From assembly GCA_905178155.1 (NCBI GenBank), contig CAJINV010000001.1, positions 1,166,606-1,230,605 of the forward strand: a stretch of DNA of 64,000 nt, given 5' to 3'. Positions 7,427-56,528 of this stretch are shown here, piece after piece. Numbering within the stretch: the first letter of the stretch is position 1; every line of letters begins with the position of its first letter. The position numbers were made by a program, and so were the translations under genes. Origin of the DNA: Amoebophrya sp. A120 (Eukaryota > Protista > Dinoflagellata). The notes under the pieces were generated by a model that saw only the letters and a list, made by a program, of their open reading frames with translations, did not search any database and had not been told where the DNA came from.

Positions 7427-9663
7427 ATGGCTGCTGCCCTTGCGGGCGCCCTTGATTACGGCCGCTTAACTCCACCGCCGGGCTGTCGCGTGGTGCTGGC
7501 GTTGTGCGTGGCGTTTTTTATCCTGCCCACTGGAGAAATCCTGGCCTGCTCACCCGCAAATGTTTTCGACCGGTGGTGGCTCTGGACCCTTTGCACCACC
7601 ACCTACGTGCACCACGTACGATAGTGTTTTTTTGTCTGGAGGAGGTTATTGTAGAGCTAGACAGAAACGAGCCATCTCACCTTGTGTGAACATGGTTTGT
7701 TGGGGAATGGGCATTGATAGTGATCATGCTCAATCCATAAACAGAGTTACACCAATCGTCTTGCACATGCGTTACTTTATCTAGTTTGATTTTTGAAAAT
7801 CCAATCCCCCCACAGGAGTTGTTTTCGCTGGCGGGGGGCTTGCTGCTTGGCTGGCGGCGGTTTGTGCGCGCGGAAAACGAGCATGGGACTGTCGGGTTTC
7901 TGCTCTGGCTCCTCTTCGTCTCCGCCGTAATCCACGTCGTGTACGTGATTGCCTGCCACTTGGTGTTCGAGTATTTCGACCCACGACTTGCCGGGGAACC
8001 CGTGCTATGTATTGCAAAAGTATCGTTATCGTAGTACTGGCAGAAATTTTTGTCGCAATACAATTTGATGAGACCAGGAGGAAAATTACAAGTGCAATTT
8101 GTAATGCTGCTTCAGCAAAAAAAGAAGATTTGTCGCGCAGATTGCAACTAGTGCGAGTAGGAATACGATACTTGTTTTGCAATGCATACGTGCACGGGTT
8201 GTGGCCGCTCGTGTGTCTGCTCTTCACCTACGATGCGAAGCTTGACCCGTTCGGCGAGGTATCATGTATGAAATTTTTGCGCACCAGGCAGCTACATCTT
8301 CAAAAGTTGCACCACGTGTAGCATATTTCTTCAAGAACTTCTTTGCTCTGATGAAGCAAAGGCGGGCCGCACAGTGCAACGACTGCGCCAGCTGGGAGGT
8401 AGGGAGATATGTCGATGCTGTGTAGTACTATCATCTGTGCAGGAACTTATTCATCTCGGCAACAAGAAATGCCAGTGCCAGCGATCGAAACGACAACGCT
8501 TCATACCTCAGGTCCTGCTCTGGCCGCTCCCTCTCACGGTGTACACGCGCACAGTGCCGCTACTGGCGTTGTTTGGTGCGTGGCTGGTGCACTTCGACGC
8601 CCACCTGGATTCCATCGTGGCCATGTTGGTGGCGCTGGCGCTTCCGTTCGAACTGCAGCTGTCGGACGCCGCGCACGATGCCATTGAAGCGGTTCTGGAG
8701 CGCCACGAAAGTGTCCGCGCGGTGCAGTACCTGAAGGGTATGGAGGGGTTTTGCACCCGCAACGCGGGCTTCAAGGCGCTCGGCACCAGCGGCGCCCCCG
8801 TATCCAGTGCAAATATGTCTGGGTGGTCTAGAAGGTTGATGCAACTTGTGATGCTGTGTTTGGATTCTAAAAAAATCTGTACTGCATGACCAGCAAGAGG
8901 TGCGCAGTTTGTGCTACGCGCAGAGGGCATTTCTGATGCGGAATAGGCAACAGGAAGCCGTCTAAAAGGCTGTCATGCTAGGTCATGCATTACAGGCATC
9001 ATGGCTCGTGCGAAATATGCATGATAAACCTGGAAATCTTCCAGACCCAGACATATTTGCAATGCATATCCCGCCACCCAGGCCAACGAGTTTGACTTTG
9101 CCGGCAGCGGCGAACTGGATTTGGAAGCCGGCGCGGGTTTCGACGTGAGTAACGTGCTTGCGGGGGCGGGGAGCAGCAGCAGTAGTAGCTCTAGCACCGG
9201 GGGTCATCTTTTCGGGAACCCAGCCACGCTGTCCTCACCTGGGAAAAGCGCGAGCGGCGTAGTTGCTTCTACGGCCGGAGGAGGTCCTGCTCTAGTAGCG
9301 GGAGCAAGACCAGACGCAGTTGGCGGCAGCATGCTTTATCCCCAGCAAATAGGAGCCGCCTCATCTTCCGGTATTGCAGCTACCAGTTCTACTGCTGCGC
9401 TTTACGCAGTAGACCCGCGGCAGCAGGCGCCAGTCGCCGCGCCGCTCCCGCCGCCGCCCGGGGGCTTCGCGAGCGCGGACTTTCTCGAGAGCGACAGCAC
9501 GACGGCACAGGTGCTGAATACCGACTTTCTCGCTCCCGGGCCAGCGGCGCCGCCACCGAACGTGGACCCATTCCTCGCACAGCACCCAGTGTTCGACGAG
9601 AACATAAACACAAAGGACATATTCGGTGACCTAAGCACCACGGACGATCCGTTTGAATTGTGA
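7427..9663 (+). CDS. Rhomboid-like / TMEM115-type multi-pass membrane protein with low-complexity acidic tail
   Basis: Several hydrophobic segments, WWLWTLCTTTYVH motif; GT-AG introns 7616-7815 and 8259-8511 plus two introners; ends DDPFEL*. Confidence 0.6.
8006..8188. mobile_element. Introner, family D
   Basis: TATGTATTGCAAAAGTATCGT...TTTTGCAATGCATA; DR CGTGC/CGTGC; restores GEPV-HGLW. Confidence 0.85.
8801..9068. mobile_element. Introner, family A (TIR TAT-N4-TGCAAATATGTCTGGGTCTGGAA)
   Basis: DR CCCCG/TCCCG; frame restored (GAP-ATQ). Confidence 0.85.
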
Positions 9664-10156: not shown

Positions 10157-12838
10157 ATGGCGCCGCCCGTTCCCCGCCGCTCCCACAGGACGCGCAAGAA
10201 GGGAGCTCTCGTTTGGCTCTCTGCGGCTTGGACTGCTTCGGTGAACCACCAGACGAGCTCTACTGGCGTCGTCGATGCGGCGAAAGTGGGTGCGGGGACA
10301 ATAAAAGCCGGTTCGCAACACCGGCTTTTCTTCGAGGCGTCCACCAATGCCAAGGTGCAGTCCTGGTCCACCCTCGGGGTGATTCACAAAACCGAGTACT
10401 GGGGCACGATCAACGTGGGCACGCCCCCCCAGGAGTTTCAGGTCATTTTCGACACGGGCAGCGGGAACCTGATCCTGCCGGGCTCCAAGTGCGACTCCGC
10501 CCCCTGCGTCCAGCACAAGCGCTACGAACCCAGCCAGTCCAGCTCGGGCGTCGCCGTCGGCAAGGACGGTGTGTCGCTCGCCACCGACCCGTCGCAGTAT
10601 CGAAAGGAGGAAAAATTTAGGTTTACACACGAGATTTACTACTTAGAGCTACAACTGTCAGCACACTGTCGAGACATCGTTCTTTTATGAAAAAGATGCA
10701 GTGGACCGCGCCGTGTACTTGCTCCTGCTCGGGTGGAAGTACTTACGCAGCAAGGGTGGAGCCACGTAGCGATGTAGATATTTAGAAAAGTAGTGCGAGC
10801 AGTGGCCAAAGAACGCACTCTCTGTTGAGACGATCGTATCTATCAATCACAAGCCTCGTTTATTGATGACCGAATCTCGGAACTTCTCTATGATTTCTCC
10901 TCTGCATATTGCAACTGCGGAGTCCACGATTCGGTTTGGAACTGGGGAAATTCATGGGTCTTTCGTCAAGGACCAGATCTGTTTGGGTACATATAGACGT
11001 CGATTTCATATTTCATTTTCAACAGATAAGATATCACGCACGAAGTACTTGATCACGTCGCGCGAGTCTAATTTAGTATGCAGGTTGTGGTGCGAAAGGA
11101 AAAGTAGATATCGAACCATACTTTTTTCAGGTTCGTCCTCCAACGTTTGCACGACTTCAAGCTTCATTTCAACGACCAGCGAAACGGACGAACCCTTCAC
11201 CCAGTGCAGCTTCGACGGCATTATGGGGCTGGGGTTCGCGGACCTCAGCATGGGTGACAGTTTCAACATGATGGATGATTTTGTGCACTCCCGGACGCTG
11301 CCGCGCAACCAGTTCTCCGTCTATTTGTCCGACACCAGCGGGAGGTCGGAAATCTCCTTCGGTGGCTACAAGCCGGAGCAGATGCTGGGCAGCGAAATGT
11401 TCTGGGTGCCCGTCACGCACCAGAGCTACTGGGAAGTTGCCAGTACGGAAATAAAGCCGACTGCTGTTGTTCGGAAGGAGTTTGTATACTTCTAAGGGGC
11501 TACTTCATATGATGCTGACGAAGGACGACGAAAATCTGTACTTGCAAGTGACAAGAATCGATCAGTGGGTACTTCTATATCAAAACTGCTGGAGCAGATA
11601 CAGAAAATGCATGTGGTCCAGGCCTCTATATAGAATCTTGTACCCGAGCGGCTGCAAGTTTTTGTTTTTCCTCCTCCACACTTGTTGACGACATCGCCTT
11701 CAACAATGAGCCGAAGAACCTGTGCGAAAATTGCAAAGTGGCGGTGGACACGGGGACTAGCATGCTGGCGGGGCCGAGCGACGTGATTGCGAGCTTGACG
11801 GAGAAGCTTGGCCTGAAGTCGGACTGCAGCATATTGCAAGGAAAAATCCCCGCTCCCCATACTGAAAAGGTATGTTTCTAAAAATTTGTGATGCTGATTT
11901 GTGGCCACAAATCCTGTCTCTCTTGCAAGAGGGCAAACTCATAGAGACCCCGGCACGATATGCAGGCGATTTGTCATGCTGCAATGCCTAGAGGGCTGAC
12001 GTCTGTCATGCTGGGCCCCTACACCAAAAGGCCCCCCCTTAGGCTTACGATCTGCGCGCAGTGCTTTACTGCAAGACAAATGTGATTTGTGTACTTAAAT
12101 ACAGCAACACATATTTCGTTTTCGTGCTTAAATACAGCGACGCCGGACAATGGCAATGTCGGCGCGGTTGTTTTAGCAACACATATTTCGTTTTCGATAT
12201 GGGGAGGGGGGATTTTTCCTCTCAATACAGCAACCTGAGTGACATGCCCCTGCTGGGCTTCCAGATCGGGGACCGCGTGCTCAACCTCAAGCCCGAAGAC
12301 TACATATCACACGACAAAGTGTTAACGTTGACGGAATTTGTGACGCAATAACGCATCACAAAACGTGCCCAGATTTGTCATGCATAGCATGGACGCTAGG
12401 CAAAATTTGTCATGTATATTTTCAATATATGAAAACCGTTAACGTTAGCACTTTTTGGCTTCATACTACATCGACCAGGGTGACGCGAGCTGCGAGCTTT
12501 CCCTGATGGAGCTCGACGTCCCCCCGCCGAAGGGACCGATTTTTGTGTTCGGCGACCCCTTTTTGCGCCGGTTTCTCACCGTCTACGACAAGGACGGGCC
12601 GCGCGTCGGCTTCGCCGTGGCGCGGCAGGAAGGCGAAAGCTACGCGGACGGGGCCGATCTGATGGGCCGGGTGCGCGGGTGCGCGGGGCCAAGTGGAGCG
12701 GAAAGAATCGTAGCGCCCCGCGGGGAGGTGGAAGTGTTGTTGCAGGAGGAAAATCTGCTGAAGAGGAAGTCCGCGGGCGCCTCGAGCTTGATCTCTGTCT
12801 CGCTGCAGCGCACAAAGCGGAGCAAAAAGGGGCAGTAA
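10157..12838 (+). CDS. Pepsin-family (A1) aspartic protease
   Basis: [35 protein letters not shown], second catalytic VAVDTGTS, C-terminal [17 protein letters not shown]. Confidence 0.95.
10598..10908. mobile_element. Degenerate introner (C-like ends, 311 bp)
   Basis: TATCGAAAGGAGGAAA...TTTCTCCTCTGCATA; DR decayed (CGCAG/TTGCA) but removing element+5 nt restores frame. Confidence 0.55.
11832..12227. mobile_element. Introner, family C (TIR TAT-N4-AGGAAAAATCCCCCCTCCCCATA), with internal duplication
   Basis: DR CAGCA/CAGCA; restores SDCS-NLSD. Confidence 0.9.
12305..12465. mobile_element. Introner, singleton family (AAAGTGTTAACGTT inverted repeat)
   Basis: DR CTACA/CTACA; restores EDYI-DQG. 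Confidence 0.85.
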
Positions 12839-19282: not shown

Positions 19283-20204
19283 ATGCCGCGTTGGATGGCA
19301 CATTCCCGGCGTTGTGTTTTTCTTTTCGGCGTCCTCGTCTTTGGCGGCGTGGCACGCGCAGCGGACAGCGCAACTGCAGAGCCGTCGGCTAGTTCCGCGA
19401 TGGAACAAATGTTCACGAAAATTAAACAAAGCACAGGTATCGACTATCAGTCGAACATGGAAAAGAATTTTCTCATACAGTACGACATCAAGAAGAAGGA
19501 GGCGGAAGGGGAGGTAGTTATAAATTTTGCATAGTTTAGTTTTTTGTCCCAGTCCAGTGAAGCTAAGCGTAGTGCATACCAGTGGAGCAAAATGCAGCGA
19601 AGAAGACGCTGGCGGGTTGACTGTGCTTCTGAGCGGATTGGCGCTGTACACCGGCTCGGGGAAACGCGGCAGGAGACGGATAGCACCGGGCACGGTGGCG
19701 GAGCGAACGCGCCGAAGCTGAGACTGACTGTGGCGCGCAGGCGGCGCTACGGGTGGTGGGGACGCAGGAGGAGCGGGCAAGCGGTGGCGTTGCTGTGTTT
19801 GGTCACGTCTGCGCGGTCAGAAAAAACGTCTGTTGAAGACGGTCCCGCAGGTCCGCGCCCGGTTTCCAGATCCCTGCGGGTCACCCAGCGCCATGGGAGC
19901 AGACGAGCAGACCCGAGGAGACGGGCTGCAGTACCAGGCGGCGAAGATGTTGCTCATCGTCCGCGACTATACCCGCGCGGCTCCGGAGGCGAAAATCCTC
20001 TCGCCCGCGCAGGGCAAAATCCGCAACACCAAGGAGATGAAGTGGAAGCGGGCTCCGATGCTTGGAAAGAACGCGGCAGGCGAAGCGCGAAGTACTACCG
20101 CGCCATGTGGGGGCGGACTCGCGAGCCCCGCCGCAAACTACGGCTCCCGGGGCCTCGCCACGCCAAGGAGCCTCTCGGGCGCGGGAAGCAACCCAATGAA
20201 TTAG
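19283..20204 (+). CDS. Hypothetical protein with signal-peptide-like N terminus (exons 19283-19513, 19851-20204)
   Basis: CVFLFGVLVFGGVARA hydrophobic leader; phase-compatible GT-AG intron 19514-19850. Confidence 0.5.
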
Positions 20205-21706
20205 CGTCGCCGCGATGCGGGAGGCGGCCAAGGTCTGCGACCACCCCGACAGGCACCTGGCTGAGCATTTCCTGCGTGGCATGAAGGCAGCTGGGAATCT
20301 CGGCCGCGAATGGGTGTGGCAAGTGAATCCGGTGATGGCCGAAATAGGTTGCCAGGGAGTTCAGGACCTCTGCAGACGCGGCTGACGTCACCGAGCGCGC
20401 GGAGCCGACCGGGCGGGGCCCGAAGCTTTTGTGAGGGTCGCTCGGTTGTATGGGTGACATTCATGAGCACCAAATGGCCCTACAAGACAGTGGGGCGCAG
20501 GAACTTGGTCCCGCAATCCAGCCCGTCTTCCCCGAAATAGGGAACCAGCAAAACCAGGCCGGCAGTAGATTATCGTGCGCGACATAGACAGGGCTGCGAA
20601 AGCACCGCGGAGCTGCTCGCGCTAAGTAATCGAAATGACCCCCTGGCAGGGGGCCACCTGCAACGCCGCCTGCCGGGCGGCGCAGCGGTCCAAGGAATTG
20701 GAGGCGTGCTTTTGGTACGTATAGATACTGCGGTACGCCCGCCTGCCCGGCGGATGATATTCCGCGAAAGAACCTCCTTCCCCGTCTCCTACAGTCCTGG
20801 CGCCCAGCATAGCACCAGGAGCACCACGCGGGCCCCTCGGTCCACAAATTTGTCAAGCGGCAGCTGCTCACTACGCTGCTGCCGGAGGACGTGGCACTGG
20901 ACCCCACACACACGTCGATCAGGACAAATGTGGGGAGCGCGCGCGCTTTTGGGGTTTTCGGCGAGGCCGGACCGTAGCAGGCGGGCGGCAGCGCGGCAAA
21001 GTTTGTCTTTTCCTGCATGTGAGCGTAGCCCTACTGGGCGCCTCGCCAGTGATGAAAGTAGTCTCGTGCGAATCGATTGCGAACGAGAAACGAAAGGACC
21101 CGCAAGACAGCCTGCGCGCTAGTACTTGTTTGGTTGTTCGCGCGGATTCCTGCTCTCGTTTTTGTCGCGGTGGCAAGATCTCATGATGAGAACAGACACA
21201 GATCAGCATTATTGCCCAAATTTAATCCCACATCAATAGTTGGTCGAGGACAATGTGAAGGCGGTGGCGGGGCTACTGGTAAATGGGCCAGTAAAACCAG
21301 AAGACATTGCGGCGGCGACGAAATACATGCACGCGTACTTGTTGGCTGCGACGGAAGCGGAAGAAGAAACCGACTTACCATTGGCGAGACTGAATATCCA
21401 GCGCAATTATGCCTAGGGGCTAGGGCAAAGTGCCGCGGCTGGAGCAATATCTGGCTGCCAACTGATGCAAAAGTAAGAGCTTGCGTGACCCAGCATGTTG
21501 CAATTTTTCATGAAAATAAAGTTGCGACGCATTGCGTTCTTCATGCAAACTCGCACTCGCAGGCACAGTCTTACTTAGGGCTGATCAATATGACTGCCGC
21601 AAAGAAGCTGGCGTAGAACCTGGCGAAGAAGCTGGCGTGGAAGCTGTTGGCGAGTATGTATCTGAGATTTGTTTGAGGTCCTAACGCCATAGGTATATTT
21701 GCGCAG

Positions 21707-23502
21707 GATACTGCATGCACTGCTCAAGGCAAAGGGGCCGGAGGAACGTCAAGGGGGCTCCGACAAGTGGGACGTGCCCGACAGCAAGGGAAATCCCGGC
21801 CGCGATGCGCTGATCTGCTTCGTCGATTGGGTGTTCGACGAGGTGAAGGCTACGGAGGCTACGGAATTCGGCGTGGATAGGGAGATTCTCAAGGAAAATG
21901 CGGAGAAAATAGCAGGAGAGGCAAAAACAGTGTTCCGTACGGGTGAGACACGGTACAACTTCGGCAACATGGTGACTCAAACATGGGCGCTCGGATATGG
22001 CTCGTCGATAAACGACGAGCTCGCTGATGCAAGGAAGTTGGTTGACAAGGTGAAATCTCAACTATTCAAAAAAAGTTCAACGCTTAGAAAAATAATTATA
22101 TCAACTATTGAAAATGAAAATAAAAACTACTTCCATCTACTAGTGAAATTCATTCAGTGGGTTTCTAGAGGAATCTGGAAGCAAGTATCAACGCCAGGTC
22201 GCTGCTTGCATGTGCTTCGGTCGCAGCATTCTTGCAGTGCAGACAGCGCATCCACATCCCCGGCTTTCATGCCATCAAAAATCGCACGGATTTTGTCATC
22301 CGGGATCGCAAAGATGATCCCGAACATTGAATGTTGGAAATCGTTGAGGTCCAAACGTTGGCTTTGAAACGTTGAGACTTTACCTTGACAACCTAGGCCG
22401 TCCCTCCGTGCCTCTGATCCTGATTCTGATTCTGATTCTGATTCTGATTCTTCTGCTCTCCAAGTCGCAATCGACGAGGGGTCAAGCACGTTGCAGCTGC
22501 CCGGCCGAGCTGCCGACTCAATATTCGCACAGCCACCCACCTCTTCCCGTGATCAAGCTTCACACGACGATACCACAGCCGCGACTCCTTTGACTACGCC
22601 GCATGCGACATCGACGTTGAGCGAAAATTCTCGTGGACTGCAAGGGGATGGCAGGGGCACCGTATCGGCGCAAACTGCCGATGTTTCGGCGACTCTCTGG
22701 GAAGTCGAAGTGAGTTCCGGGAAAGGTGATCAACCAGCGAAAGTGAGATCCGGTACTGTGCCGGCAAAGTCGACCGGGGAGTCCAGCGTGCTCTCATCTG
22801 CAGAACACGGCCAACCGTCAATATCGGCCACGACCTTGCATGCAGCCTCAGGGGAGAAAGCTGCGGTGCCGACTGAACAAGGGACTGCTGATGTGGCTCA
22901 GCTGCAGGTGCAGCGAGCGCAAGAAACGAGCAACGGGCAACCAGTTCATGCTCCCCAGGAAGAAAATGCTGCGTCAGGAGAAACACATGCCCGTGAATGA
23001 CATTGCCAACACAGGCAGCGGTCCGTGGCCGACTATGACGACACACGTTTTCGCACATGTCACTTCCGTGACGTCTTCGTTGGTTGACACCTACCCATTC
23101 GTTTCCGTTTTGATACTCGGCGTGTTCTGTGGATCGATGCTCTTTCTCGTTCAGTGGATTTGCTGCAACCGCGTGCAAGGCCTGGCTGCTGGTGCTGAGG
23201 CGCCTTTCTCCACGTCCGCAGCGCGTACCGGCATTTTCGAGTCGGCGAGCTGGTTCTCGTTTTGGTGGTGTCGTTGCTGCGGCCGCAAAACGACCAAGGG
23301 CGAGAAGATCACGTGTGGCGGGAAGAAGGATCGGCGGTCAGCTGCAGCCGGTGGGGACGACGATGCTGTTGCCGGAAATGACATCGAGCGCGGGCAGCGG
23401 ACCAAGTTGCGCTGCTCTGGCGAAGAAGGGCAGGCGTGGAGTGGTTACGGAACCATCGAGAACGCGGACGCGAACTGCACCACGGGCGGAGCGAAGGTCT
23501 AG
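21707..23502 (+). CDS. Hypothetical protein(s); exon structure unresolved; Ser/Thr-rich region then a TM segment
   Basis: Coding-like exon 21707-22049, SD-repeat/mucin-like ORF to 23000, TM-like FVSVLILGVFCGSMLFLVQWICC in ORF 22840-23502. Confidence 0.4.
22412..22451 (+). repeat. (TCTGAT)n hexamer microsatellite, would encode (SD)n
   Basis: About six tandem TCTGAT-type units, in frame with ORF 22491-23000. Confidence 0.85.
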
Positions 23503-24381
23503 TTGAGAGAAGCACTGCCTGTGCCTTCTCTGGTTCAGCTCACCGAGAGGTCAGCAGTTTCGACGGAATTATTATTTTGATGATCGCTACATCAGATTCA
23601 GACAAGTTGAATTTCAATTCGAATTGAAATCCTTTTACGATGACCCATTAAACCTAGATTGTTAAGAAGCGTTTACTAAGAATACTGTCTCCTATAATAG
23701 ATTTTTTTCATCAGTTTGTTTGCAAATCGTATCAATTGGTTTCTTAAAGAACAAGTTCAAACGCCCATCGACAGTTCGTCATGACATGCCTGGCAGAGAG
23801 TTCCAAGAACTCGTTGTAGTAAGTACTTACAATCAGGACCAGGCGTCCTCTCACTGCTAGAGGAATGTTTCCGCCAATGAATTGCACATCATATAACATG
23901 CGAAAATGCCCCTGTATACATCGAGGAAAAAACCATAATCGAAACAAGAGCATGCTTGCTGTCCTAGTCTCCTCTACGGGTACCTCTGCGCTGTTTTAGT
24001 CTGAGTGTTTGTGTTTCCGCTTTTGCACCGGAGGAGTTCGTGCACATGCCAGTCGGGGACTTCGCTAACACCATTTTTGGTACTTTTGCCTAGCACCTGA
24101 GTGAACAATAAAACGAGGGAGTCATTCGTGCGAACAGGCAGAGACCTTTGTAAAGGATCTTGATCATGCGAACGTATGTTTTCTGTATGGCACCACTGGG
24201 CGTAATCGATGAACAACACACCTGTGCTTTCTCAGGTCTCCCCTTACGTTTTCCTTTTCGATTTTCTCTCGTGGCAGAAAACACGTCTGCGCAATAGTTC
24301 TTTTGTGTACGACCTTTTCGGTAATTACTTAATTTATTTGATACGCATTATGTTGCATCAACATCTTCCAGCATAGGCACC

Positions 24382-27168
24382 ATGGCGTTCGTCCGTCGCG
24401 CGTCGCGGCACCGGGCGAGTTTAGGAGACGCCGAGTTCCCCTACGAGGCCGGGCGGTATGTGCTCTACGTCTCCTACGCCTGCCCGTGGGCGAATCGGGC
24501 CGCGCTGGTGGCGAAACTGAAAGGTTTGGACGAGAAAGTTCTTCCAGTCGTGTCCGTGCACCCGATACGCATTGCACATGTATTTGGATCCTCTGATGGA
24601 ACAGGCCAACTTGTCATGCCAAATCTGAATCATGCAAAAATCTGTGTTGCATGATTACCAAAAGCTGTGCCTTTTTTACCGACTTGAGATGTGATTTCTC
24701 ATGCAGGAAATGCATCACAAAGATCCCACCGGATCTGTCATGCTAGGTCCTGGGGATTCCAGTCCTCATGGGTCACGTAAAACCTGCATGACAAGTTGAC
24801 ATATTACCAGAGCACCCGCACATACTTGCAATGCATACCCCACGTGGCAGCGTACGAAGCCGGGCGTGGACTCGCACTGCGGCTGGGTGTTCCGCGCGCC
24901 GGGGGAAGGGGTGGTCCCCCTCGCTCTCCTCGACAACGTCACCGCACAGGAGGGCAAGGTGGCTAAGGGTTCCGCACTGAACGAGGTCAGTGCGGCGGGC
25001 GAGGTGGGCAAGCAGACCGAAATCCGCACGGCGAACTGCGGGGTGGACAGCTATTCGGGCTGGAACTGCCGCACGCTGCGCGAACTCTACGAGAAGTGCG
25101 GGGATTCGCTCGAGACCGGGGGAAAATTCACCACGCCGCTGTTGTTCGACCGGAAACAGTATGAATTACAAATATGTCTGGGTCTGGAAGAGTGCAGACA
25201 TCTGTGATGCAGTTTTTCCGCAGCCCAGATCGTCTGGCATGCAAGCCCTAGCATCACAGATTCCGAGTAGGTATCCCGATGCCTAAACCGCATGACAAAT
25301 GCCCCCTTTCTGTAACAGGGAATGGGGCCTTTTGCTGACTATGCATGGCAGATTTTGTCATGATGTAGAATTTGCATCACAAATTCGAATCCATCCAGAC
25401 CCAGACGTATTTGCAGGGGATAGACAGCGCAAAATCGTGAATAACGAGTCCTCGGAAATCATTCTATCAAGAAGAAACATCCCCCCTCCCCATATCAAAT
25501 CGGAAATCTGTGATGCAGATTTGTGGCCACAAATCAGCTCATTCATGCTAGAAGGGAAAAGATGTGGACTGTAGTGCTGGATGGCGTAGGAAAGCATTGC
25601 ATCTTCAGCATGACAGGACGCAGCTGGAAGTGGGAAGCAGCATGACAAATTGCCTGCAAACGAGGCCACAACTGCGGCCCTTGGCCTTCTAGCATTACAA
25701 GTCGATTTGTGTACTCAAATACAGCATCACAAGTTTCGCTTTCGATATGGGGTGGGGAGATTTTTCCTTTTGATAAATTCTGCAGCTGAACAACTGGCCG
25801 GCCGACGCGAGCAACGGTGCGACCACCGGAAGTGTGGACTTGTGTATGATCGGAAATAGAGAAGGCGTCGCTTTGCATTTTTGTAGACTGGAGGTAAAGC
25901 AGCTCCTGGTTTCGTTGCTGAGGACGAGAATTTTTTTATGCGCAATATACCGATTCACTTTCAACACAGTCCGAATTTCCGGTCGGAGTAGAGGATCAAG
26001 ATTACCGTAGCAAAAATCTGCACTATCGCACATAGAAAGTTGAGAAGCAATCCTTTATTTTCCCGATCCATACACGACCCTCTTCATTTGAAGAAGGATA
26101 TCGACGAGTGGAACGAGTTCACCTACGACCGCATCAACGACGGCGTGTACCAGTGCGGGTTATCCTGTGTGAAAACGTCTCCACCCCATACTCAAGATGG
26201 TAGATCTGCTACACAAATCAAGGAACTTTGTGCGGTTCGCATGACAAATTTTTATAGACACCTAGTGCAGCAGTGTTTGGCTATATTAAGTACAACAATA
26301 CGCATCACACGTTGACCGTCTGATGCTGATTAGAGCATGACAAATTCGTCCGAAACCGCACTAGAAAATGCATCTCATCGGGCTGCGCATGCGAAAGGTT
26401 TTCCGCATGCACTTTCTGCATGACGGGGACGTTTTTACCCAGCATACTGCTTTGCGCGCACCCAGGTCGCGTACGACCGGGCGGTGGATAAACTTGCGAC
26501 CAGCATGCAGAAGCTCGAGGACCGGTTTGCGGAGGAACCAAGCCGCGCGTTTCTGGTCGGCGACCAGCTCACGATCGCCGACGTCCGGCTGTTCCAAACT
26601 TTAGTATTAAAATGAAAAATGCCCCCTCCACCCCAGAACTTGGCAGCATTTGTATTGCAAACCTTTCCAATACTAGAAACACTCCCTTTCCTGCATATAC
26701 CAGCATCGCAAATTTTCCATGCTGACTAGCCCAAAATCTGTATTGCAAAGAGCCCAGCACCCGCCGAATCTGTTATGCAGAAGATACCTTGCGCACCTAG
26801 AAGATTCTGCATCAGAACCACTCGTAGTCCTTTCATGCAAGACAAAGAGTTTTCATTTGGAAACTTTGCATCAGAAACTTTTGCAAATTATGGGGTGGGG
26901 GCGCTTTTCATTGTAATACTTGGTTCGCATGGACGAGTGCTACGTGATCTATTTCAAGTGCTACGCCGCGAGTCTGCGAAATTTCCCACTCCTCTTGCGG
27001 TACACCGCGCGGATCTACCAGATGCCCGAGGTCCAGGCGTGCACCTTTGTCCGGGACTGCAAAATCCACTATTTCACCTCGCACCCGCACCTGAATGCGT
27101 TCGCCGTGGTCCCGCGGGATTCACAGGTCGTCGAATTGCTGGAGCAACCACCCGACACGCTGATCTAA
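24382..27168 (+). CDS. Glutathionyl-hydroquinone reductase / Xi-class glutathione transferase (ECM4/YqjG family)
   Basis: GRYVLYVSYACPWANR, FTTPLLFD, IVNNESSEII, DLYP...IDEWN, INDGVYQCGFARTQ, LTIADVRLFQTLVRMD, IHYFTSHPHLN; six introners. Confidence 0.93.
24566..24837. mobile_element. Introner, diverged family A (starts TAC)
   Basis: DR CCCGA/CCCCA; restores VHP-TWQR. Confidence 0.8.
25160..25422. mobile_element. Introner, family A
   Basis: DR AACAG/GACAG. Confidence 0.88.
25465..25775. mobile_element. Introner, family C
   Basis: DR CATTC/AATTC. Confidence 0.9.
25845..26072. mobile_element. Old introner (TATGATCGGAAATA...TATTTTCCCGATCCATA), DR decayed
   Basis: Residual TIR; removal of 25844-26076 gives conserved DLYP. 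Confidence 0.75.
26161..26446. mobile_element. Introner, family B (TIR TATCCTGTGTAAAAACGTCCCCACCCC type)
   Basis: DR CGGGT/CTGCT; restores YQCG-FARTQ. Confidence 0.85.
26605..26918. mobile_element. Introner, family E (TIR TATTA(A/C)AATGAAAA..GCCCCC)
   Basis: DR TTTAG/CTTGG; restores FQTL-VRMD. Confidence 0.85.
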
Positions 27169-28825
27169 TATCCACGGTACAGAGGACGGTTGGACTTGGA
27201 GGGAAGAAGGGCAAGGTTTGTCATGCGGTGAAAGGTTGATGAGGTTCTTTCGCTCAAGGAGAGACAGTTACAGCAAGTGTCTCTGATTCGTTAGAACGCA
27301 TGCATGAGTCGGGCATTGGAATCTCATTTTGCATCTTCCTTTTAGTTTTATCGCATGATAAACTTCATGCCTTTATTCCGCCCCAGCACGTCGGCCTTTT
27401 CCGGACGATACAGGCTCCAAGAGTGGCGCGTCGAAGGGTCTACTCGGCTTTTTGCGAGATTTTTTCACAAAGCGAATATGTTGAGGGCGCAGTTCTTCCG
27501 CGGGAGTTGTGGCCGAAAGTGTTTCAGTTAATTTCGAGATAAACTACCAGTTTAAGAACCAACTCTGTCACGTGGCAATGCTACCACCAGCACGGGCAAG
27601 AATGCGCAGGGCCTATTTTTCTTTTTGCGGTTGTGCTGGGGCTGCTAGTACAACTGCTGTGATGGAACAACGAACAGGCATGGCACAGGATGACGCGGAA
27701 CAAGCGCATGGATAGAATTTACACGACTTTTTGAAGGATAAGAAAAGTACAGACGGCGCGGTGATACCGCTAGAGTTGTTCTTGATACCAGTGGACGAAA
27801 GTGGTGAAGTTGTTGTAGCTACTTTGACCACTAGAATAAGGAATCAGAATCCAACTACACGCTAGCCATTGCTCGTACCACCCTCGCTGGAATTCTTACG
27901 CTCATCCAGCGCATTTCGATCTGATGCTGGTCGGAAAATGTCCATGAAAAGCGTTTCATGCAGCAATACCGCGGTTTGGTGAAGGAAAGCCCTGCACTTC
28001 CAGTGGGTCCGGCTGTAGCAGTTTCAGAATAGCGTTCAGAACGAGCGGATGGCACTGTCGTTGAAAAATTTTCTTTGCGGAGATGTTTCGTGTCCAGATT
28101 CCAGAACCACACGGCAGGGAAACGATGCGGATCAAAGGTTTCGCTCACATCGGAAAAGTAGCACGAGCGTGTTCAGAAGATTTTCTAGCAGATCGTCTTA
28201 TGCACTCACTGTTCGTTGTTGCTTCGGTACCACGAATTTCCCGATCTCCCTTCATGTTGGTCATCTACTTCTCTGATCTTGTTTTTTCTGCTAAAAGGAG
28301 TCGATGAGCCCGGATCATTTTTCAGGCAGGGCAGACGTCAAGGCTGGTTCTCCTCTGATCTCTGATCCCATATCTTGCAGCTCACGTTGAGCGTGCCATA
28401 CGAGCACTTTGTTTTTGTTGATCGTGTGGTCGATCTTGGACTTTCTCTTTTTCGCTTGCTTTTGGTTCCACCTTCTGTGTTTTTGTGCAAGTTCGTTTGG
28501 ATCTTCCTTGTTCCGTGTCGATTTCATAGGAGGGTTTCGGAATGGTCTTGTGGAATCGGTGAACTACTACATGGCTACCAACGAACGCGTCGTGGTGTCA
28601 GATTTTTTTGCTGCTTTGAAGCAAACGTTTAGTTGTAGTGTTAGTTGATAGACAACAGTATAGGCGAGACTAACTTCACATCTCCATTTTCATCACACAA
28701 ACATTTGGAGAAATAATTTCTCAGGTCCTGCTTCACACCCGATGAGGGAAATTTCCGAAAAGAGCCCCTCGTGCTAGCGGAGTTGCCAGCGAAGAATATT
28801 ATCGCGCGTACGAGGACCAGCAGCT

Positions 28826-34800: not shown

Positions 34801-37800
34801 CGGTCGTGTTACTTATGCGCGTAACTGTACTGAAAGTGCTGTAGCACGTGCGGTCTGAGAAAGCAAAGAGCGGCGCTGCAGCATGACAGTAAGTGAAACC
34901 ATTGTCATTTTTCCGCGCCACAGTAGAGCAGAAGTGTGGGAAGAAAAAATTTTCGTTTTCCATAGTTTGTGATGGATTTTTACGAGTACGCGATGACGCT
35001 GGATACCGACGGCTACTTCCCGCAACCACTGGACAACGACCCCATTGTATTGAGAGGAAAAAACCCCCCTCCCCATATCGAAAAGGTGTGTTTGTCTTGC
35101 TGATTTGAGACCACAAATCACGTCTGTCTTGCAAGAAGACAATTCCACAGGCTCTGCCGCATTATGCAGGCGGTTTGTGATGCTGTTGGGCCTACAGCGT
35201 AGACGTTTCTCATGCTAAGCGCCTAGGCCAAAACTTCTCTACTCAGGCTTGGCAGGAGCCTGCAGCCCTCTACTGCAAGACAAACGTGATTCGCGTACGC
35301 AAATCCACCATCAGAAACTTCCGCTTGATATGGGGAGGGGGGATTTTTCCTTGTGATACATTGAGCGGATGTGGCGCGGAAATTACACCTACACCTGGTC
35401 CCACTTGCTGCCGGACTATCAAATGTAAAAATGTCTGGGTCTGGAAAAGTGTAGACTTGTCATGCAGATTTTCCATGACCCATGAGGCCTGGAATGCGGG
35501 ACTTAGCATGACAGACTCTGCGAGGTCTCTGCCATGCCTATCCTGCATGAGAAACTCCCTTCCAACTTGGTCAAAAGTGTACAGCTTTTGGCACCCATGC
35601 ACCACAGACTTTTGCATGCTTCAGATTTACCATGACAAGTTTCGATCTTCCAGACCCAGACATTTTTGCAATTCATACGGACCAGCCCGGCGCGGTGCGA
35701 CACTTCTGGAGCTGGAGTCTCATGTATTCAGTCGGTTAGCAAACGTACTTCGTATAGATACAAACTTTTGCGTTTTTCGACTTTTCATTTTGTTTTCAAA
35801 TCTCGATGGGAATCGATGCATGGTACATGTGGGGCTGCAGAAACAGAATGAACGCGATTTTCTAAATCGCCCTTCAGGTTTTTCCAAATGAAGGACATTG
35901 ACTGGCGCACGCGGCCGCTGCTGCAGGATTTCATCCGTTATGCATTGCAAAAGTATCGTACTCGTATAAATGCATTACAAATTTCCTCAGCATGAGAAAT
36001 GAAATTTGTAATGCGGATTTGCCTCAAGAAAAGGATTTGCAAGACTTGCATTTATACGAGTACGATACTTTTGCACAGGATATCCGTCCGGAGGATTTGG
36101 AGTGGAACTACAATTTGTACATGAACGACATCTATCAAATGCAAATATGTGTGGGTCTGGAAACTTGTGATGCTGGCTTGGGAATGGTGGACACACTAAA
36201 CTACGCAGCCGAGCATGACAAGTTCTTGAGCTGCTATGCGTTGCGAGTTCTGCATGGCAAGCTGCGCTTTTGCATGACAGGCAAGCGACTCTCCTTTTGC
36301 TCATGCATCACAGAGTTAGGAGTCATGAGAGAAAAGCATGACAAACTTCCATTCTTCCACACCCAGGCATATTTGCATTGCATAACATCGAAATCAACAA
36401 GATCTCGTTTTTCCGGTCCGACAAGTACCAGGAGTACTACGAGTACCTGAACAGCTTCAACGGGTTCTTCCTCTACCGGTGGGGCGACCACGCGCTGTAT
36501 TACAATGAAAAATGCCCCCACGCCCACCCCATATCAAAACGCAAATTTGTGATGCAGATTTGTGGTCACAAATCAGCTTTGTCATGCTACAAGGGAAAAG
36601 ATGCGGACTGTAGTACTGGGTTGCGTGGGGAAGCTTTGCATCTTCAGCATGAGAGGAGGGAGCTGGAAGTGAAAAACAGCATGACAAATCGCCTGCAAAC
36701 GAGGCCACAACTGCGGCCCTTGGCCTTCTAGCATTACAAGTCGATTTGTGTACTCAAATACAGCATCACAGATTTTTTCGTTTTCGATATGGGGAGGGGG
36801 GATTTTTCCTTTTGATACGCTGCGCACCATCGCGGTGGGCATGTACCTGGAACCGGAGGACGTGATGCAGATGCGCATCCCGTACGGCCACCAGGGCTAC
36901 TGCCAGTGCTTGTCCACAGATTACCGGTGCTACACCGAGGAGCGGTACTACTCCGAGATGGGAAACCTGACCACCCTATCCTGTGTAAAAACGTCCCCAC
37001 CCCAGAGTTGTCATGCAGATCTGCAAACACAAGAGCACTTGTAATGCGCATCCCCATAATAGGAATTTCCGATCGTGTTTTGGAACTTGTAATGCTGTGA
37101 ACAGGATGAGCAGAGGGATTTGTAATGCGACTTCCCTTGCTAAACTGCACTACAATACAGCCTGCAATTTGTCATGCGTGACTCCCAAAACTTCGAGGTT
37201 TGTGTTGCAAAATCCCCATCTTGACTCTGGGGTGGGGACGTTTTTACCCAGGATACACCCAGCCGGACTTCTTCCGCAAGGAGTGGCGGGTGTGCGCTAT
37301 CGCAAGGGAAAATCTCTCCTCCCCATACTGAAAAGGTATATTTTTGGAAATTTGTGATGCTGATTTGTGGCCACAAGTCGTGTCTGTCTTTACAAGCAGG
37401 CAAACTCAGAAGGCTCCCCGCATTAGGGCGGCAGTTTGTCATGGTGTTGGGCCTGCAGCATAGACCTTGGTCATGCTGCGCGCCTCGGCCAAAACCTCTC
37501 CAATCAGGCTTGATAAGGGCCTGTGATCCTCTACTGCAAGACAAGGCTGATTTGTGTAGGCAAATCCAGCACCAGAAATTTCGTTATCGATGTGGGGAGG
37601 GGGGATTTTTCCTTTTGATATGCGCGGATCCCATCCCCAGCCCCAGCGAGCGGCTGATCAACCAGATGGCGGAAACGGAAGAGGAAACGAAGGAGTTGAC
37701 CTTCGTCGCCGGCGAGAACCCGATTTTAGATGAGGCGGAGAAAACCCGGCAAAGACAGGAGGAACCGGATGAGCGGGAGTGTGCAAAGTTGGAGAAGACA

Positions 37801-38064
37801 GCGGAAGATGAGGACGGTACAACAACTTCTACTTCAAGTACTGGCATTTCATCTGAGTTTGCGAAAAAGTGTGCGAAGAGAAAAGCAAAGAAAGCGGCCG
37901 CGGCGAAGGATACGGAGGAGAAAGAGGTAGATGACACAGGAGATGATACTCAAACCAGTAGCAGTACGACATCAACAACGACATCAACCGCAGCCAGTGT
38001 CAACAAGAGCGCTGTCAAGAAAACTCAGCGGGCCACAAAGAGGAAACGAAGAAGAAAGAACTGA
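28826..38064 (+). CDS. Large multidomain membrane protein ending in a GT15 (KRE2/MNT1-like) alpha-mannosyltransferase domain; also PAN/apple-like and EGF-like modules
   Basis: Spliced exons give GYRGMCKFRSG, YAMTLDTDG, YMNDIEINKISFFRSDKYQEYYEYLNSFNGFFLYRWGDHALRT (GT15 motifs); CQRHCSMSAGCRFWTF; RGRCTTQGFCECFPPYRGPAC; N-terminal hydrophobic anchor; 13 introners plus other introns. Confidence 0.8.
30681..30942. mobile_element. Introner, family A
   Basis: DR GGGCG/GGGCG. Confidence 0.92.
31016..31266. mobile_element. Introner, family A (opposite orientation to 16612-16861)
   Basis: DR ACTTG/ACTTG. Confidence 0.92.
32126..32341. mobile_element. Degenerate introner
   Basis: TATTCAAATGGAAAA...TTTCCTATCCATA; DR CGTGC/CGCCA decayed; element+5 nt joins ORFs 31585 and 32133 in frame. 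Confidence 0.6.
33433..33694. mobile_element. Introner, family A
   Basis: DR TGGAC/TGGAC. Confidence 0.92.
33749..34000. mobile_element. Introner, family A
   Basis: DR ACTGT/ACTGT. Confidence 0.92.
34122..34383. mobile_element. Introner, family A
   Basis: DR CCTTC/CCTTC; close relative of 53261-53522. Confidence 0.92.
35048..35358. mobile_element. Introner, family C
   Basis: DR CATTG/CATTG. Confidence 0.92.
35417..35677. mobile_element. Introner, family A (opposite orientation to 34122-34383)
   Basis: DR CGGAC/CGGAC. Confidence 0.92.
35939..36082. mobile_element. Introner, family D
   Basis: DR TCCGT/TCCGT; close relative of 4515-4670. Confidence 0.92.
36133..36384. mobile_element. Introner, family A
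   Basis: DR ACATC/ACATC; restores MNDI-EINK. Confidence 0.92.
36498..36817. mobile_element. Introner, family C body with E-type left end
   Basis: DR CGCTG/CGCTG; restores DHAL-RTIA. Confidence 0.92.
36977..37255. mobile_element. Introner, family B
   Basis: DR CACCC/CACCC. Confidence 0.92.
37298..37620. mobile_element. Introner, family C
   Basis: DR TGCGC/TGCGC. Confidence 0.92.
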
Positions 38065-52121: not shown

Positions 52122-55100
52122 ATGGGTTGCTGCCTTGCCGTCGCGGAGGTGGCGGAGGACGTCCGCCAAACGGTGTACGAAATTGCGGATGCCTTGGGGG
52201 TATCGAATGCAACAAATATGTCTGGGTCGGGGAGATTGCGAGATTTGTCGTGCTAGTCTGGCATGACTCTGCGCTCTGTATTGCGTGGCCGCAAAGAGCT
52301 CCGCTGGCCTGTCATGCAAAGACGCAGCTTCTCATGCGGAGTACGCAACTCAGAACCTCCACGGCAAACAAACTTGCCATGCTTGGCAGCGCATTGCAGT
52401 GTTTTCATTATTCCCTTTCTTGCATCACAAGTTTCCAGACCCCGACATATTTGCATTTGATAGGGGGACGCTATGGACGGAATGTGGAACGATATCTTCG
52501 TGGATGACGTGCCGAAGGAGGTCAACGAGACCACCAAAGAAGCGGACGGTATCCTGAGTAAAAACGTACCCACACCAGAGTTGTAATGCAGATTTGCAAA
52601 GACAGGAAGACTTGCAATGCGCATCCCCATGAGAGCCATTTCCAATCGTGTTTTGGAATTTGTGATGCTGTGAACAGGATGGGCAGATGAATCTGTGATG
52701 CGGCTGCACTTGCTAACCTGCACTACACTGCATAGTGCAACTTGTCATGCGTGGCTTACAAAACTCCTAGGCTTGTGTTCCAAAATCCTCATCCTGACTC
52801 TGGTGTGGGTACGTTTTTACTCAGGATAGACGGCTGGACGAAAATCCTGGGCGTCTACCTCGCCGGCTACCCCCTTTCGTGCGGGAAGAAGCAGTTTTCG
52901 TCGCTGGACGAAGCGAAGGCCGCCGCCCTGGAGTTGGAAGACTGCGGTGGGGTCACGCAGGTTGGTCGTGTAGTGTAGTCCGTTGGAATTAAGTAGAGCA
53001 AAACTGGGGTTAGGGTTGTACTCATATTTTGTATGTATCACGTGAGCGGGATTCATGTTCATCAGCGTCTTTTTGTCTGCTGATAAAGATGAAAATCTGA
53101 ACTGTTTTCTCCAAAGGTTGCGGAGGATGTTTTCGAGCTACGTGCGACGGGCCGGGTGATGCAGTCTCCCTCCAACGAAACCACGTGGCGCAAGCCCTAC
53201 ATGCTGGCGAGCGGGGACGGCGACAGCAGCGGCGAGAAGAGTCCGCGGACCGGCGGTCCATATCAAATGTAAAAATGTCTGGGTCTGGAAGAATGCAACT
53301 TGTCATGCTAAATCTGAAGCATGCAAAAATCTGTGTTGCATGATTACCAAAAGTCGCCCAGTTTTGACCAAGTCGGAAGGGAGTTTCTCATGCAGGAGAG
53401 GCATGAGAGAGATCGCGCAGAATCTGTCATGCTAGGTCCTGCATTCCAGGCCTCATGGGTCATGGAAAAGCTGCATAACAAATCGCGCACTCTTCCAGAC
53501 CCAGACATTTTTGCATTTGATACTCCGGGGGCGGTGACGAACGAGGACGAAATCAAGGTCGACGACGATGAGGAGGTGAAACAGCGGAAGCGCGACGAGC
53601 TGGCGGCCAAGCTGGCGGCGGCGAAACAAGCGGCGGAGGAGGCGAAAAAGCGCGAGGCGGAACGGCTCGCGGAGAAGGCGCGGAAGCGCAAGGAGGAGCT
53701 GAAGCGGCTCGCGGAGTCGCAGGCGCCCGAGAAGCTGCAGGTGATGTGCGACTACGGGAACTGCACGGGGGTGTTCGAAAAGGTGGGGGACTTGAACGAG
53801 AAAGCGCAGTACAAGCTAACCGAGAAGGAAGCAAACGTCTTCGTCTGCTACGACGGCGAGCGGTGGATCATGACCTTCGAGGAAAGTCCGGAGCAGGGCA
53901 GCGAGTTCAACCGCATCGCGCTGTCGGGGAAGACCGCGGTCATCAACGTGACCGCCCTCAAGTCGTGGGGCAACAAGGGCGTGCGGTGCTACGACTACGA
54001 GCGCTACCACGCGCCCAACGAGCCGGAGGAGGGAAAATTCACCGACGAGGACTTTCCGCCGGCCCTCGGCAGTCTGGCGAACGACACGAAGTGGGGCAGC
54101 GACGTGCAGTGGATCCGGGCCTGCAACCTGCACCCGTGTGAACAGATGGAGTTGTTCGACACGATCCAGCCCACGGACGTGCGGCAGGGTGCGGTCGGGG
54201 ACTGCTGGTTGATGGCGGCCTTTGCGTCGCTGGCGGAATTCCCGGGCTACCTGGAGGAGGTCACCTTCAAAGGCTTGAATGCCCTCTCCGCGGAGAGCAA
54301 ATACGTGGTATCAAATGCTGCAAAAATGTCTGGGTCTGGAAGAATGCAGGGTTTGTCATGCACAGCTAGCATGGCTCTCAAGTCTGTCATGCGCGCCACA
54401 CAAAAGCCACATTTCTCTGTCATGCAGAAACGCAGTTTGTCATGCAGATAGGCAACACTCTAGCAGCTCCACAACTTGTCATGCTTGGCTGTCAATGAAG
54501 GCGTCCACATGTTGATTCGCCGAACAGCATCACAAGTTTCCAGACCCAGACATATTTGCATTTGATACGTGGTGAAACTGTACAATCCGTACGAGAAGGA
54601 GTGGGAGGACATTGTGATCGACGACTTCATATGCACTGCAAATACAACGTCCGGGTCTGGAATGTTCGAACTTGCAATGCTGGTCTTACATGACTGTAAA
54701 ATCTGTATTGCAGCATGACCAACAAAAGTCGCAGCCTCTTCATGCAAAATGAACTCAGCTTCTCATGCAGGCAGCGCATGAGAAAGCGTTTTGGACAAAA
54801 TTGTCATGCTTGGCTGCCTTCGGAAGTGTTTCCATCATGTGCATTTTAGCATCACAAGTTTCCAGACCACCCAGATCGACAATATTTGCATTTGATACTT
54901 CATCCCCGTGGACGGCAACAAGGACGCGCTGTTCTGCAAGCCCGTGGGCCACGAGGTGTACATGTGTCTGCTCGAAAAGGTATCCTATGTAAAAACGTCC
55001 CCACACCAGAGTCAAGATGGGAATTCTGCTAGACAAATGCACCAGCTTTGGTTGCTGCGCATGACAAGTTTGGCCTCGCAGTATAGTCCTGTTCAGAAAG

Positions 55101-56528
55101 CCCCAGTAGCATCACAGATCTAGCGTAGCATGCTGATTCAAGCATCACAAATTTCAAAACACGACGAGAAGGCTCTTCTCATAGGGCTCCGCATGAGAAA
55201 CATTTTCACCATGCAGATTTGCATGACAACTATGGGGTGGGGACGTTTTTGCATAGGATAAAAGGCGTTTGCCAAGCGGTGGGGCGGCTACTTCAAGATG
55301 AGCGGGGGGAACGCCAGCAACGGGTACGTGTCCTTGCTGGGGGGCAGTTGCATCAAGTACAAAAAGCGGGACGACTACGAGGAAACGGGGAAGTGGCGGT
55401 CCATCTATCTCACCTTCGATCCGGAGAGCGAGCGGACGTTCGAAGGGGACTGGTGGTGTAACAACGACGACTGCGACGTGACGGACGAGGGACTCTGGGC
55501 TTTGCTGCGGCAGTGGGACGAGGCTAACTACGTCTTCAACTGCTCCATGCCGAACTCGAAAAAGGGTGAGGTCGAGGCCGAGCGGACGGACGGGTAGATA
55601 TAAGTAGAATGACCTGATTGAGACGCGAGATGCTGAGGCTGACTCACTTATTCTGTATGCTGATCTAAAAATTTCCTTCTCGCTCCTCAAGGTTACATGT
55701 AGCAGCACCAAACTTTTCTTTCTAAAAGCGCTTTCGAAAGAAAAAAACCCACGTGATTATCACATATCAGGTTGATCGAGGGCCACGCGTATTCGTTCCT
55801 CGGTGCCTACGAAGTTCCAGAGCTAAACTTGAAGCTGGTGTGCCTGCGCAACCCGTGGGGCCGCTGCGAGTGGTATGGATTGCAAAAATGTCTGGGTCTG
55901 GAAACTTGTAATGCTGCGTTGGGAATAATGAATGCTCTGTGATGCACAGCCAAGTACGAGAAATATCTGCGCTTCTTTGTGTTCCGTTTTTCGCATGACA
56001 AACTGCGTTTTTGCATGACAGGCAAAAGGGTCTCTTCTTGGACACGCATCACAAACTTTTTGGTCATGCTCATGCCAGACAAGCATAACAAATCTCGCAA
56101 TCTTCCAGACCCAGACATTTCTGCATTTGATAAGTGGAACGGGGACTGGTCGGATGCTTCCCCCATCTGGGACTCCGTCGACAGCGCGCAGCTGGAACAG
56201 GCCGGCGTGCGGCGCGTGAAGGCCGAGGACGGTGCCTTTTTCATGACGTTCGAAGACTGGAAAAACTGCTACACCTATGATCCCGGCAAAGATAGCCTCT
56301 CTCTTGCGTAGTACTAGCCTGCGTTGCATGAGAAATAAAAATCGGCCTGCCCTTAGTTACAAACCGTTATAGCTTTTGCTTGTTAAGGGTAACATTTTCG
56401 CATGCACAAGAAGTATGCTACGCTAGAGAGGACTTTTGTCTCGCGATAACACCCGGGTGGGGGTCTGCCAGTTGTCTGTGTCGCATGGGAAACGATCCGC
56501 TGCTGAGGGATTCACCAAGCGCGGGTGA
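52122..56528 (+). CDS. Calpain-family (C2) cysteine protease with N-terminal MGCC acylation motif
   Basis: [22 protein letters not shown] (Cys), [17 protein letters not shown] (His), [16 protein letters not shown] (Asn), [10 protein letters not shown]; eight introners. Confidence 0.93.
52201..52462. mobile_element. Introner, family A
   Basis: DR GGGGG/GGGGG. Confidence 0.9.
52550..52828. mobile_element. Introner, family B; near-identical inverted copy of 50142-50420
   Basis: DR GACGG/GACGG. Confidence 0.95.
53261..53522. mobile_element. Introner, family A
   Basis: DR GTCCA/CTCCG. Confidence 0.9.
54309..54567. mobile_element. Introner, family A
   Basis: DR CGTGG/CGTGG. Confidence 0.92.
54630..54897. 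mobile_element. Introner, family A (diverged)
   Basis: DR CTTCA/CTTCA; restores IDDF-IP. Confidence 0.9.
54981..55260. mobile_element. Introner, family B
   Basis: DR AAAGG/AAAGG; restores LLEK-AFAK. Confidence 0.92.
55874..56132. mobile_element. Introner, family A
   Basis: DR AGTGG/AGTGG; restores CEW-NGDW. Confidence 0.92.
56276..56448. mobile_element. Introner, singleton family
   Basis: Imperfect TIR (CCTCTCT..GCGTAG / CTACGC.AGAGAGG); DR ACACC/ACACC. Confidence 0.8.

Follow-up and report, generated by a model that had tools for sequence, protein, structure and literature searches.

Transcript joints point to a single splice register in the TAT...ATA introners of Amoebophrya sp. A120

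In two strains of Amoebophrya more than 60% of the introns are reported to be without a splice signature or a defined border, and U1 was not found (PMC7789003). Farhat 2021 (PMC7789003) describes the introners of strain A120 as having no clear terminal signature and variable splice sites, and leaves their border undefined. A 2024 review (PMC11282704) repeats this account of the sites and the border, and the available text of PMC12130899 treats the introner families of the strain and states no register. The question raised by the locus described below is where exactly such an element is cut out of the message when it is bordered on both sides by a short repeat. The window, i.e. the whole stretch of 64,000 nucleotides that was analysed, is eukaryotic DNA with a GC content of 52%.

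We catalogued 52 elements of 144-396 nt in the window; their ends are TAT...ATA inverted repeats, and a direct repeat of 5 nt flanks them. The genes of the window are on the + strand, and a coding model called + at 50 of the 52 elements. In the window elements TAT is followed by seven variable bases and then by AAA; among 162 elements, A stands at element positions 11, 12 and 13 in 142, 148 and 153 cases, respectively. The arms of the 162 oriented elements show no orientation bias. Family relatives among the elements reach 96-98% identity, and the elements at 50142 and 52550 are near-identical copies (96%) that lie in opposite orientation, both inside + strand genes. Rfam gave no match in the window.

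A metagenome scan with a 25-nt arm added 132 loci (L001-L132), all of one assembly and with the same element families. These extra loci hold 276 elements, and a perfect duplication of the target is 5 nt long in 216 of them, 4 nt in one and 6 nt in none; several of the 60 mismatched-duplication calls are inner sub-repeats, and pairs with 4-5 mismatches were excluded from the counts. The elements of the extra loci sit at other genes and are up to 98% identical to the window families across whole elements. In this set, more mismatch in the target duplication goes with lower arm identity (rho -0.22, p 3e-4). The elements thus have the features of MITEs, i.e. terminal inverted repeats, a target duplication of fixed length, short size and empty sites (an element-free copy in DNA run X5). 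They likewise have those of A120-type introners: TAT with seven variable bases and at least three A, a border repeat within 3-5 nt, repeated families, and removal from the mRNA.

Within the window, the 5-nt target-site duplication is perfect in 34/52 elements. The preliminary description of this DNA had spoken of 16 mismatched elements; our count is 18/52, with 59296 doubtful. The mismatched duplications are unevenly distributed, as they are found in 9/9 elements of the segment 17459-27410 and in 9/43 elsewhere (p 1e-5, a post hoc comparison), and the insertions of this segment form an older block. Among the extra loci, six old introns had no relatives. Some further observations concern the remainder of the window. 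Two genes are intron-dense: a putative glycosyltransferase-like gene at 35852-38061, where a single frame has five elements, and one for a calpain-like protease at 53093-56308, with at least five. Both identities were judged by eye from the translations. Another element, at 63849-64000, extends past the end of the window and has a 99% identical copy in one of the extra loci (L078).

The gene in which the register was first considered encodes a glutathionyl-hydroquinone reductase, i.e. a Xi-class glutathione transferase (GST; Table 1). Pfam GST_C_2 was detected on one exon (E 3e-9), and the GST homologue P0001 matches GHR/Xi GST structures of the PDB. The preliminary description had argued from mismatched repeat pairs, and the pairs it listed are all present: TTGTG/CACGA at 25845, CGGGT/CTGCT at 26161, AGTTG/AGTTA at 46118 and CGCAG/TTGCA at 10598. 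In what follows, k is the count of left-repeat bases that are retained in the message. At 25845, values of k from 0 to 5 give DHDP, DYDP, DFDP, DLDP, DLYP and DLCP, so that the DLYP motif arises from k=4 alone, as had been claimed. At this site four homologues, taken from 24 candidates and not including the window's own protein, read DLNP, DLFP, DLFP and DLYP, and DLYP stands in the three PDB alignments listed. Since homologues vary here, the protein argument is suggestive and is no proof; it is the transcript contigs that decide. A similar argument had been made from the Gly of YxCGFA at 26161. It does need the left copy at repeat position 2, but it demands merely k>=2.

Public sequencing runs were aligned to positions 8001-28700, with contigs of X1-X3 (one sample) serving as RNA and X5 as the DNA control. 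The RNA status of X1-X3 is a guess which is supported by the fact that X1 skips GT-AG introns. The DNA control covers the joints in 24250-28700, and the joints outside this segment are those of X1 without a DNA control. All genes tested with transcripts lie on one strand (+). Beyond the GST gene, the X1 joints are drawn from 15 of 32 listed, which comprise two repeat artefacts, three canonical introns, eight TAT elements and two others. The raw-read runs X8-X10 were set aside, as they are of another genotype and cover 4, 1 and 3 of 30 bins, all by repeat matches.

Table 1. Coordinates of the GST gene and of the introns that bear on the splice register (k, left-repeat bases retained)
Feature	Coordinates	Strand	Details
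Glutathionyl-hydroquinone reductase / Xi-class GST (ECM4/YqjG type)	24382..27484	+	383 aa, 8 exons, open frame once 7 introns are removed
Exons of the GST gene	24382-24564, 24842-25158, 25427-25463, 25780-25843, 26077-26159, 26451-26603, 26923-27167, 27415-27484	+	all 7 joints in RNA contigs
Intron AT...CC	24565..24841	+	element 24566-24837 (TAC...ATA); joint 24564/24842 in RNA only, k 4-5
Intron GT...CA under the rule	25159..25426	+	element 25160-25422; joint 25155/25424, k 1-5
Intron CT...TT under the rule	25464..25779	+	element 25465-25775; joint 25460/25777, k 1-6
Focal intron GT...CG	25844..26076	+	base 5 of the left repeat, then element 25845-26072, then bases 1-4 of the right repeat
Focal intron TT...GC under the rule	26160..26450	+	element 26161-26446; joint 26159/26451, slide 2, k 4-6
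Intron GT...TG	26604..26922	+	element 26605-26918; joint 26603/26923, k 4-6
Intron AT...GG	27168..27414	+	decayed element 27169-27410; RNA-only joint 27167/27415, zero slide
Intron under the rule	8800..9072	+	element 8801-9068; joint 8796/9070, k 1-5, X1
Intron GT...GC, aspartic-protease gene (Pfam Asp)	10597..10912	+	element 10598-10908; joint 10596/10913, zero slide, X1, no DNA control
Intron AT...GC under the rule	21394..21714	+	element 21395-21710; joint 21393/21715, k 4-6, X1, no DNA control
Intron GT...CT, other inverted-repeat family (TTG...CAA)	22041..22394	+	joint 22040/22395, zero slide
Intron GT...TG, G|TAC...ACA-NNNN	11443..11684	+	joint 11442/11685, zero slide; outside the 11 informative elements
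Canonical intron	18190/18412 (joint)	+	read from piece ends

The intron GT...CG that had been predicted at 25844-26076 is seen in the transcripts: its joint 25843/26077 has zero slide in X1, X2 and X3 and is absent from X5. Each skip of a TAT element equals the element length plus 5. Eleven elements are informative on the register; all 11 are compatible with k=4, as against 8 with k=5, 4 with k=3 and none with k=0. The element at 17459 gives a one-sided bound, k>=2, read from piece ends, and two more X1 elements have identical repeat pairs and are uninformative. At three elements (10598, 25845 and 27169) the register is fixed exactly, at k=4. Under a uniform distribution of k from 0 to 5, the chance that 11 of 11 elements fit k=4 would be 2.2e-5; for the three DNA-controlled, RNA-only joints alone it would be 0.009. 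The majority message therefore retains the first four bases of the left copy and the fifth of the right one, with the cuts 1 nt before TAT and 4 nt after ATA, a register of which we are highly confident. This is the register that had been proposed. As the preliminary description had foreseen, the 5' cut precedes TAT by one nucleotide, T is always at +2 and +1 is free, and the 3' cut is measured from ATA whatever the sequence. Retention of one whole copy, which had been named as the outcome against it, fits 0/11 elements for the right copy and 8/11 for the left.

A coding-model test that is independent of RNA was run on 22 mismatched elements (110 confidently oriented of 256 scored); the left base was the better one at 9/23 positions (p=0.40), a test with no power. 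Among mismatched pairs, left GC with right AT was found 14 times and the reverse 6 times (p=0.12).

The joints could in principle be those of transcripts from element-free gene copies, with no splicing involved. DNA run X5 does contain a second GST copy, different at 13/1149 coding bases (10 of them synonymous), that is without the five elements 24566, 25160, 25465, 26161 and 26605 and retains the most decayed two, 25845 and 27169; four of the RNA joints, namely those of the 25160, 25465, 26161 and 26605 elements, also stand in the DNA of this copy. However, joints 24564, 25843 and 27167 are present in RNA and absent from X5. Element 25845 is present in the second copy, which has no joint at 27169, and the RNA joint at 24564 consists of the window copy's own letters, unlike the joint of the empty copy. 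The explanation by element-free copies is largely refuted at these three sites, and we regard it as very improbable for the set as a whole. Where the RNA resolves both copies, that of the window predominates (24.3 vs 14.3 in X1), and its spliced product is therefore probably what the contig path represents. As to the history of the second copy, 6 changes are counted at 20 intronic positions in the right repeats of the five missing introns (P 5e-5 with a divergence of 3.5%). That is too many for the insertions to have followed the recent split of the copies, and points to either a precise loss of the introns or a homogenisation of the exons. Another explanation, improbable but less so, is a cut whose place varies inside the target duplication, with k=4 as just the commonest product. 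Contigs give the majority path and collapse small bubbles, so that minor registers would stay unseen, and in Farhat's description (PMC7789003) the position of the splice sites with respect to the hairpin varies. On the other hand, the majority products agree in 11/11 cases, and at 27169 the k=5 product, in which left base 5 is kept, carries a stop codon. The published variability would be expected from BLAT placement of junctions that can slide.

With the register in hand, the letters at the intron ends can be sorted into constant and free ones. Under k=4, position +1 of 53 window elements is A in 13, C in 11, G in 20 and T in 9 cases, and position -1 is A in 8, C in 16, G in 20 and T in 9. 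In other words, the elements follow neither rule of canonical U2 introns. The GT/GC rule at the 5' end fails with G at +1 in 20/53, and the exact joint at 27167 leads to an AT start. As to the 3' end, AG is found in 3/53, and the exact joints end in GC, CG and GG. The first base of the next exon is A in 14, C in 11, G in 18 and T in 10 cases, with C at the exact joint 27415, i.e. there is no purine requirement. T at +2, A at +3, A at -7 and A at -5 are invariant, with A-Y-A at -7 to -5, a constancy that is partly set by the search definition and of which the needs of a transposase may be a source. YTRAY at -10 to -6 occurs in 60/162 elements at the 3' arm and in 60/162 when the elements are flipped, so there is no branch-site consensus at this place; among the RNA-tested elements it is found at the 3' arm in 1/10.

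The preliminary description had also called the arrangement a mimic of GT-AT. This is a misnomer, as the intron ends in four free bases and not in AT. The drift of ageing elements towards canonical letters that it had anticipated is not seen: G is at +1 in 7/16 pairs with a changed fifth base as against 37/122 identical pairs (p=0.39, window and extra loci), and AG at right positions 3-4 occurs in 2/19 vs 1/34 window pairs and in 1/22 vs 9/88 pairs of the extra loci. Pairing of +1 with -4 after divergence was 5/12 vs 7/34, which are small numbers. Variant ends that bear on the constraint at A-7 as opposed to T+4 amount to 8 cases with mostly unreliable strands. Position +2 is predicted to pair with -5 in the nine TAT/TAC...ATA introns that were folded (P 0.33-1.0).

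Three further introns bear on how the 3' distance may be measured. The intron at 22041-22394 belongs to another family, and its hairpin pairs +2 with -4 (a 1+3 geometry) and leaves a 3-nt tail, but it still has T at +2 and ACA at -7 to -5. Its A at -7 is the first stem mismatch counted from the ends. The intron at 11443-11684 has an arm identity of 7/25 and no predicted end hairpin, and is possibly a fully decayed element or a near-canonical intron. On the basis of these two cases, the ruler may count from the A-Y-A motif and not from the hairpin end. The intron at 8259-8511 begins as G|TAT...ATA, ends 6 nt later at AG and folds without an end hairpin; it may be an exception to the ruler, or an ordinary intron with a chance likeness. 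Canonical GT-AG introns coexist with the elements as a separate class. Four were found, all starting with GTA. A canonical GT-AG intron at 19514-21239 is 1726 nt long and has several open frames of 140-250 codons inside.

As to the mechanism, we lean towards a reading in which these are transposon-derived introns with a fixed register, removed by a major spliceosome that is without U1 and that, instead of GT and AG, would rely on the pairing of the arms together with a ruler over a short distance. Given the register, a spliceosomal mechanism as such seems slightly the better supposition. A more specific version, to which we would give somewhat less than an even chance, is that this spliceosome works without terminal dinucleotides, the terminal repeat being both donor core and branch site and the 3' cut being set by distance alone. 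The predicted hairpin would join the ends of the intron and mark it. T-A-T at +2 to +4 would be the donor core for U6 and Prp8, like a GUAU donor minus its G. The branch nucleotide would be an A of ATA, probably the one at -7, and the 3' cut would then fall at a fixed distance from it. In spliceosomal splicing U6 recognises U+2, and the G at +1 forms a pair with the final G of the intron. Owing to the symmetry of the arms, and since the two spacers (1+4) add up to the length of the duplication, an insertion would not alter the message, whichever way round it lies. T at +2, which is also found in the other family (22041) and in the four canonical GT-AG introns, speaks for the spliceosome. In Table S4 of PMC7789003, 18/18 of the top non-canonical classes start with NT in both strains; in the same paper snRNP27, like U1, was not found, whereas U2, U4 and U6 were. 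Loss of snRNP27 accompanies +4 U donors in fungi (PMC10581693), and there is a precedent for a U1-less spliceosome in Cyanidioschyzon. Branch points anchored at about -6 to -8, positions that we computed from the stated distances, are known from Yarrowia, Trichomonas and Giardia (PMC2483917). What counts against a spliceosomal branch is that the predicted pairing would hide ATA from U2.

The same register could also be produced by a separate, non-spliceosomal machinery, i.e. a hairpin-guided nuclease and a ligase, which would act as has been proposed for Euglena and release full-length circles. We hold this to be unlikely, though several points favour it: the terminal dinucleotides are free at both ends, a branch consensus is absent, the predicted end hairpins are strong, and the canonical GT-AG introns form a separate class beside the elements. 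In Euglena a paired motif is combined with two spacers of random sequence but constant length (3 and 5-6 nt), and the authors of that study have suggested that distinct proteins act there (PMC12501133). Against it, T at +2 is kept across repeat families and in both strains, which a spliceosome explains directly. Moreover, a universal ruler based on the end of the stem is contradicted by the hairpin tail, which has 3 nt at 22041 as against 4 nt elsewhere, and the intron at 11443 is cut with the same spacing and has no predicted hairpin.

A comparison with known systems places the elements, and to some extent the rule. They are like the A120 introners of PMC7789003 in having TAT with seven variable bases and AAA, junction repeats of 3-5 nt, many families, a hairpin and co-oriented genes. 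They depart from that account in that one register is resolved here, although its Table S4 and its remark on the position of the direct repeats hint at it. With the nonconventional introns of Euglena (PMC12501133, 2025) they share a likely MITE origin, a paired terminal motif and random spacers of fixed length, and in that study, too, junctions hidden by repeats were settled by cases that cannot slide. The Euglena signature itself is absent, since the motif there is CD'G/CH'G with spacers of 3 and 5-6, as against TAT/ATA with 1 and 4 here. In addition, Euglena is an unrelated lineage in which the next exon needs a purine and the pattern is proven by mutagenesis, whereas here there is no such need and the register comes from transcripts alone (PMC12501133). 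The rule works like the spacer code of Euglena, yet the introns are no members of that class, and the canonical U2 signatures fail as well.

The introns of Fritillaria borealis are also transposon-derived, with inverted repeats and target duplications, and a modified U2 spliceosome removes them; there the preferred ends are AG-AC and AG-AT and U1 is kept, whereas both ends are free here (PMC11282704; bioRxiv 2025.08.15.670264). The introners of Symbiodinium, Polarella and Aureococcus have splice sites that are fixed relative to the element and its duplication, and some are bidirectional, but there G(T/C/A) and AG are either recruited or brought along, which constrains the target, while here the target is free (bioRxiv 2020.10.14.339549). 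The introns with anchored branch points of Yarrowia, Trichomonas and Giardia resemble ours in the 3' cut a few fixed bases past a conserved A; they retain ACTAAC and a terminal AG, neither of which is found here (PMC2483917). Diplonemid introns (PMC12621601) are a further source of comparison. We found no statement of this register in a literature search that lay outside most subscription journals, and Figures 3, S19 and S23 of Farhat may show part of it. The elements are thus known, and the register rule is apparently unpublished.

A single register turns these introns into a testable code, with a candidate branch A (-7 or -5), an invariant T at +2 and defined spacer lengths, and it permits the correct re-annotation of introner junctions. 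That the 1+4 cut equals the 5-nt duplication explains how such a family can spread. If the spliceosomal reading is true, the TAT...ATA family inserts anywhere, in either orientation and without a scar, and one rule would hold for the "signature-less" introns of Amoebophrya, which number tens of thousands. In that case the catalytic core would function without G+1 or a terminal AG; if removal is not spliceosomal, a code like that of Euglena would have arisen a second time, independently.
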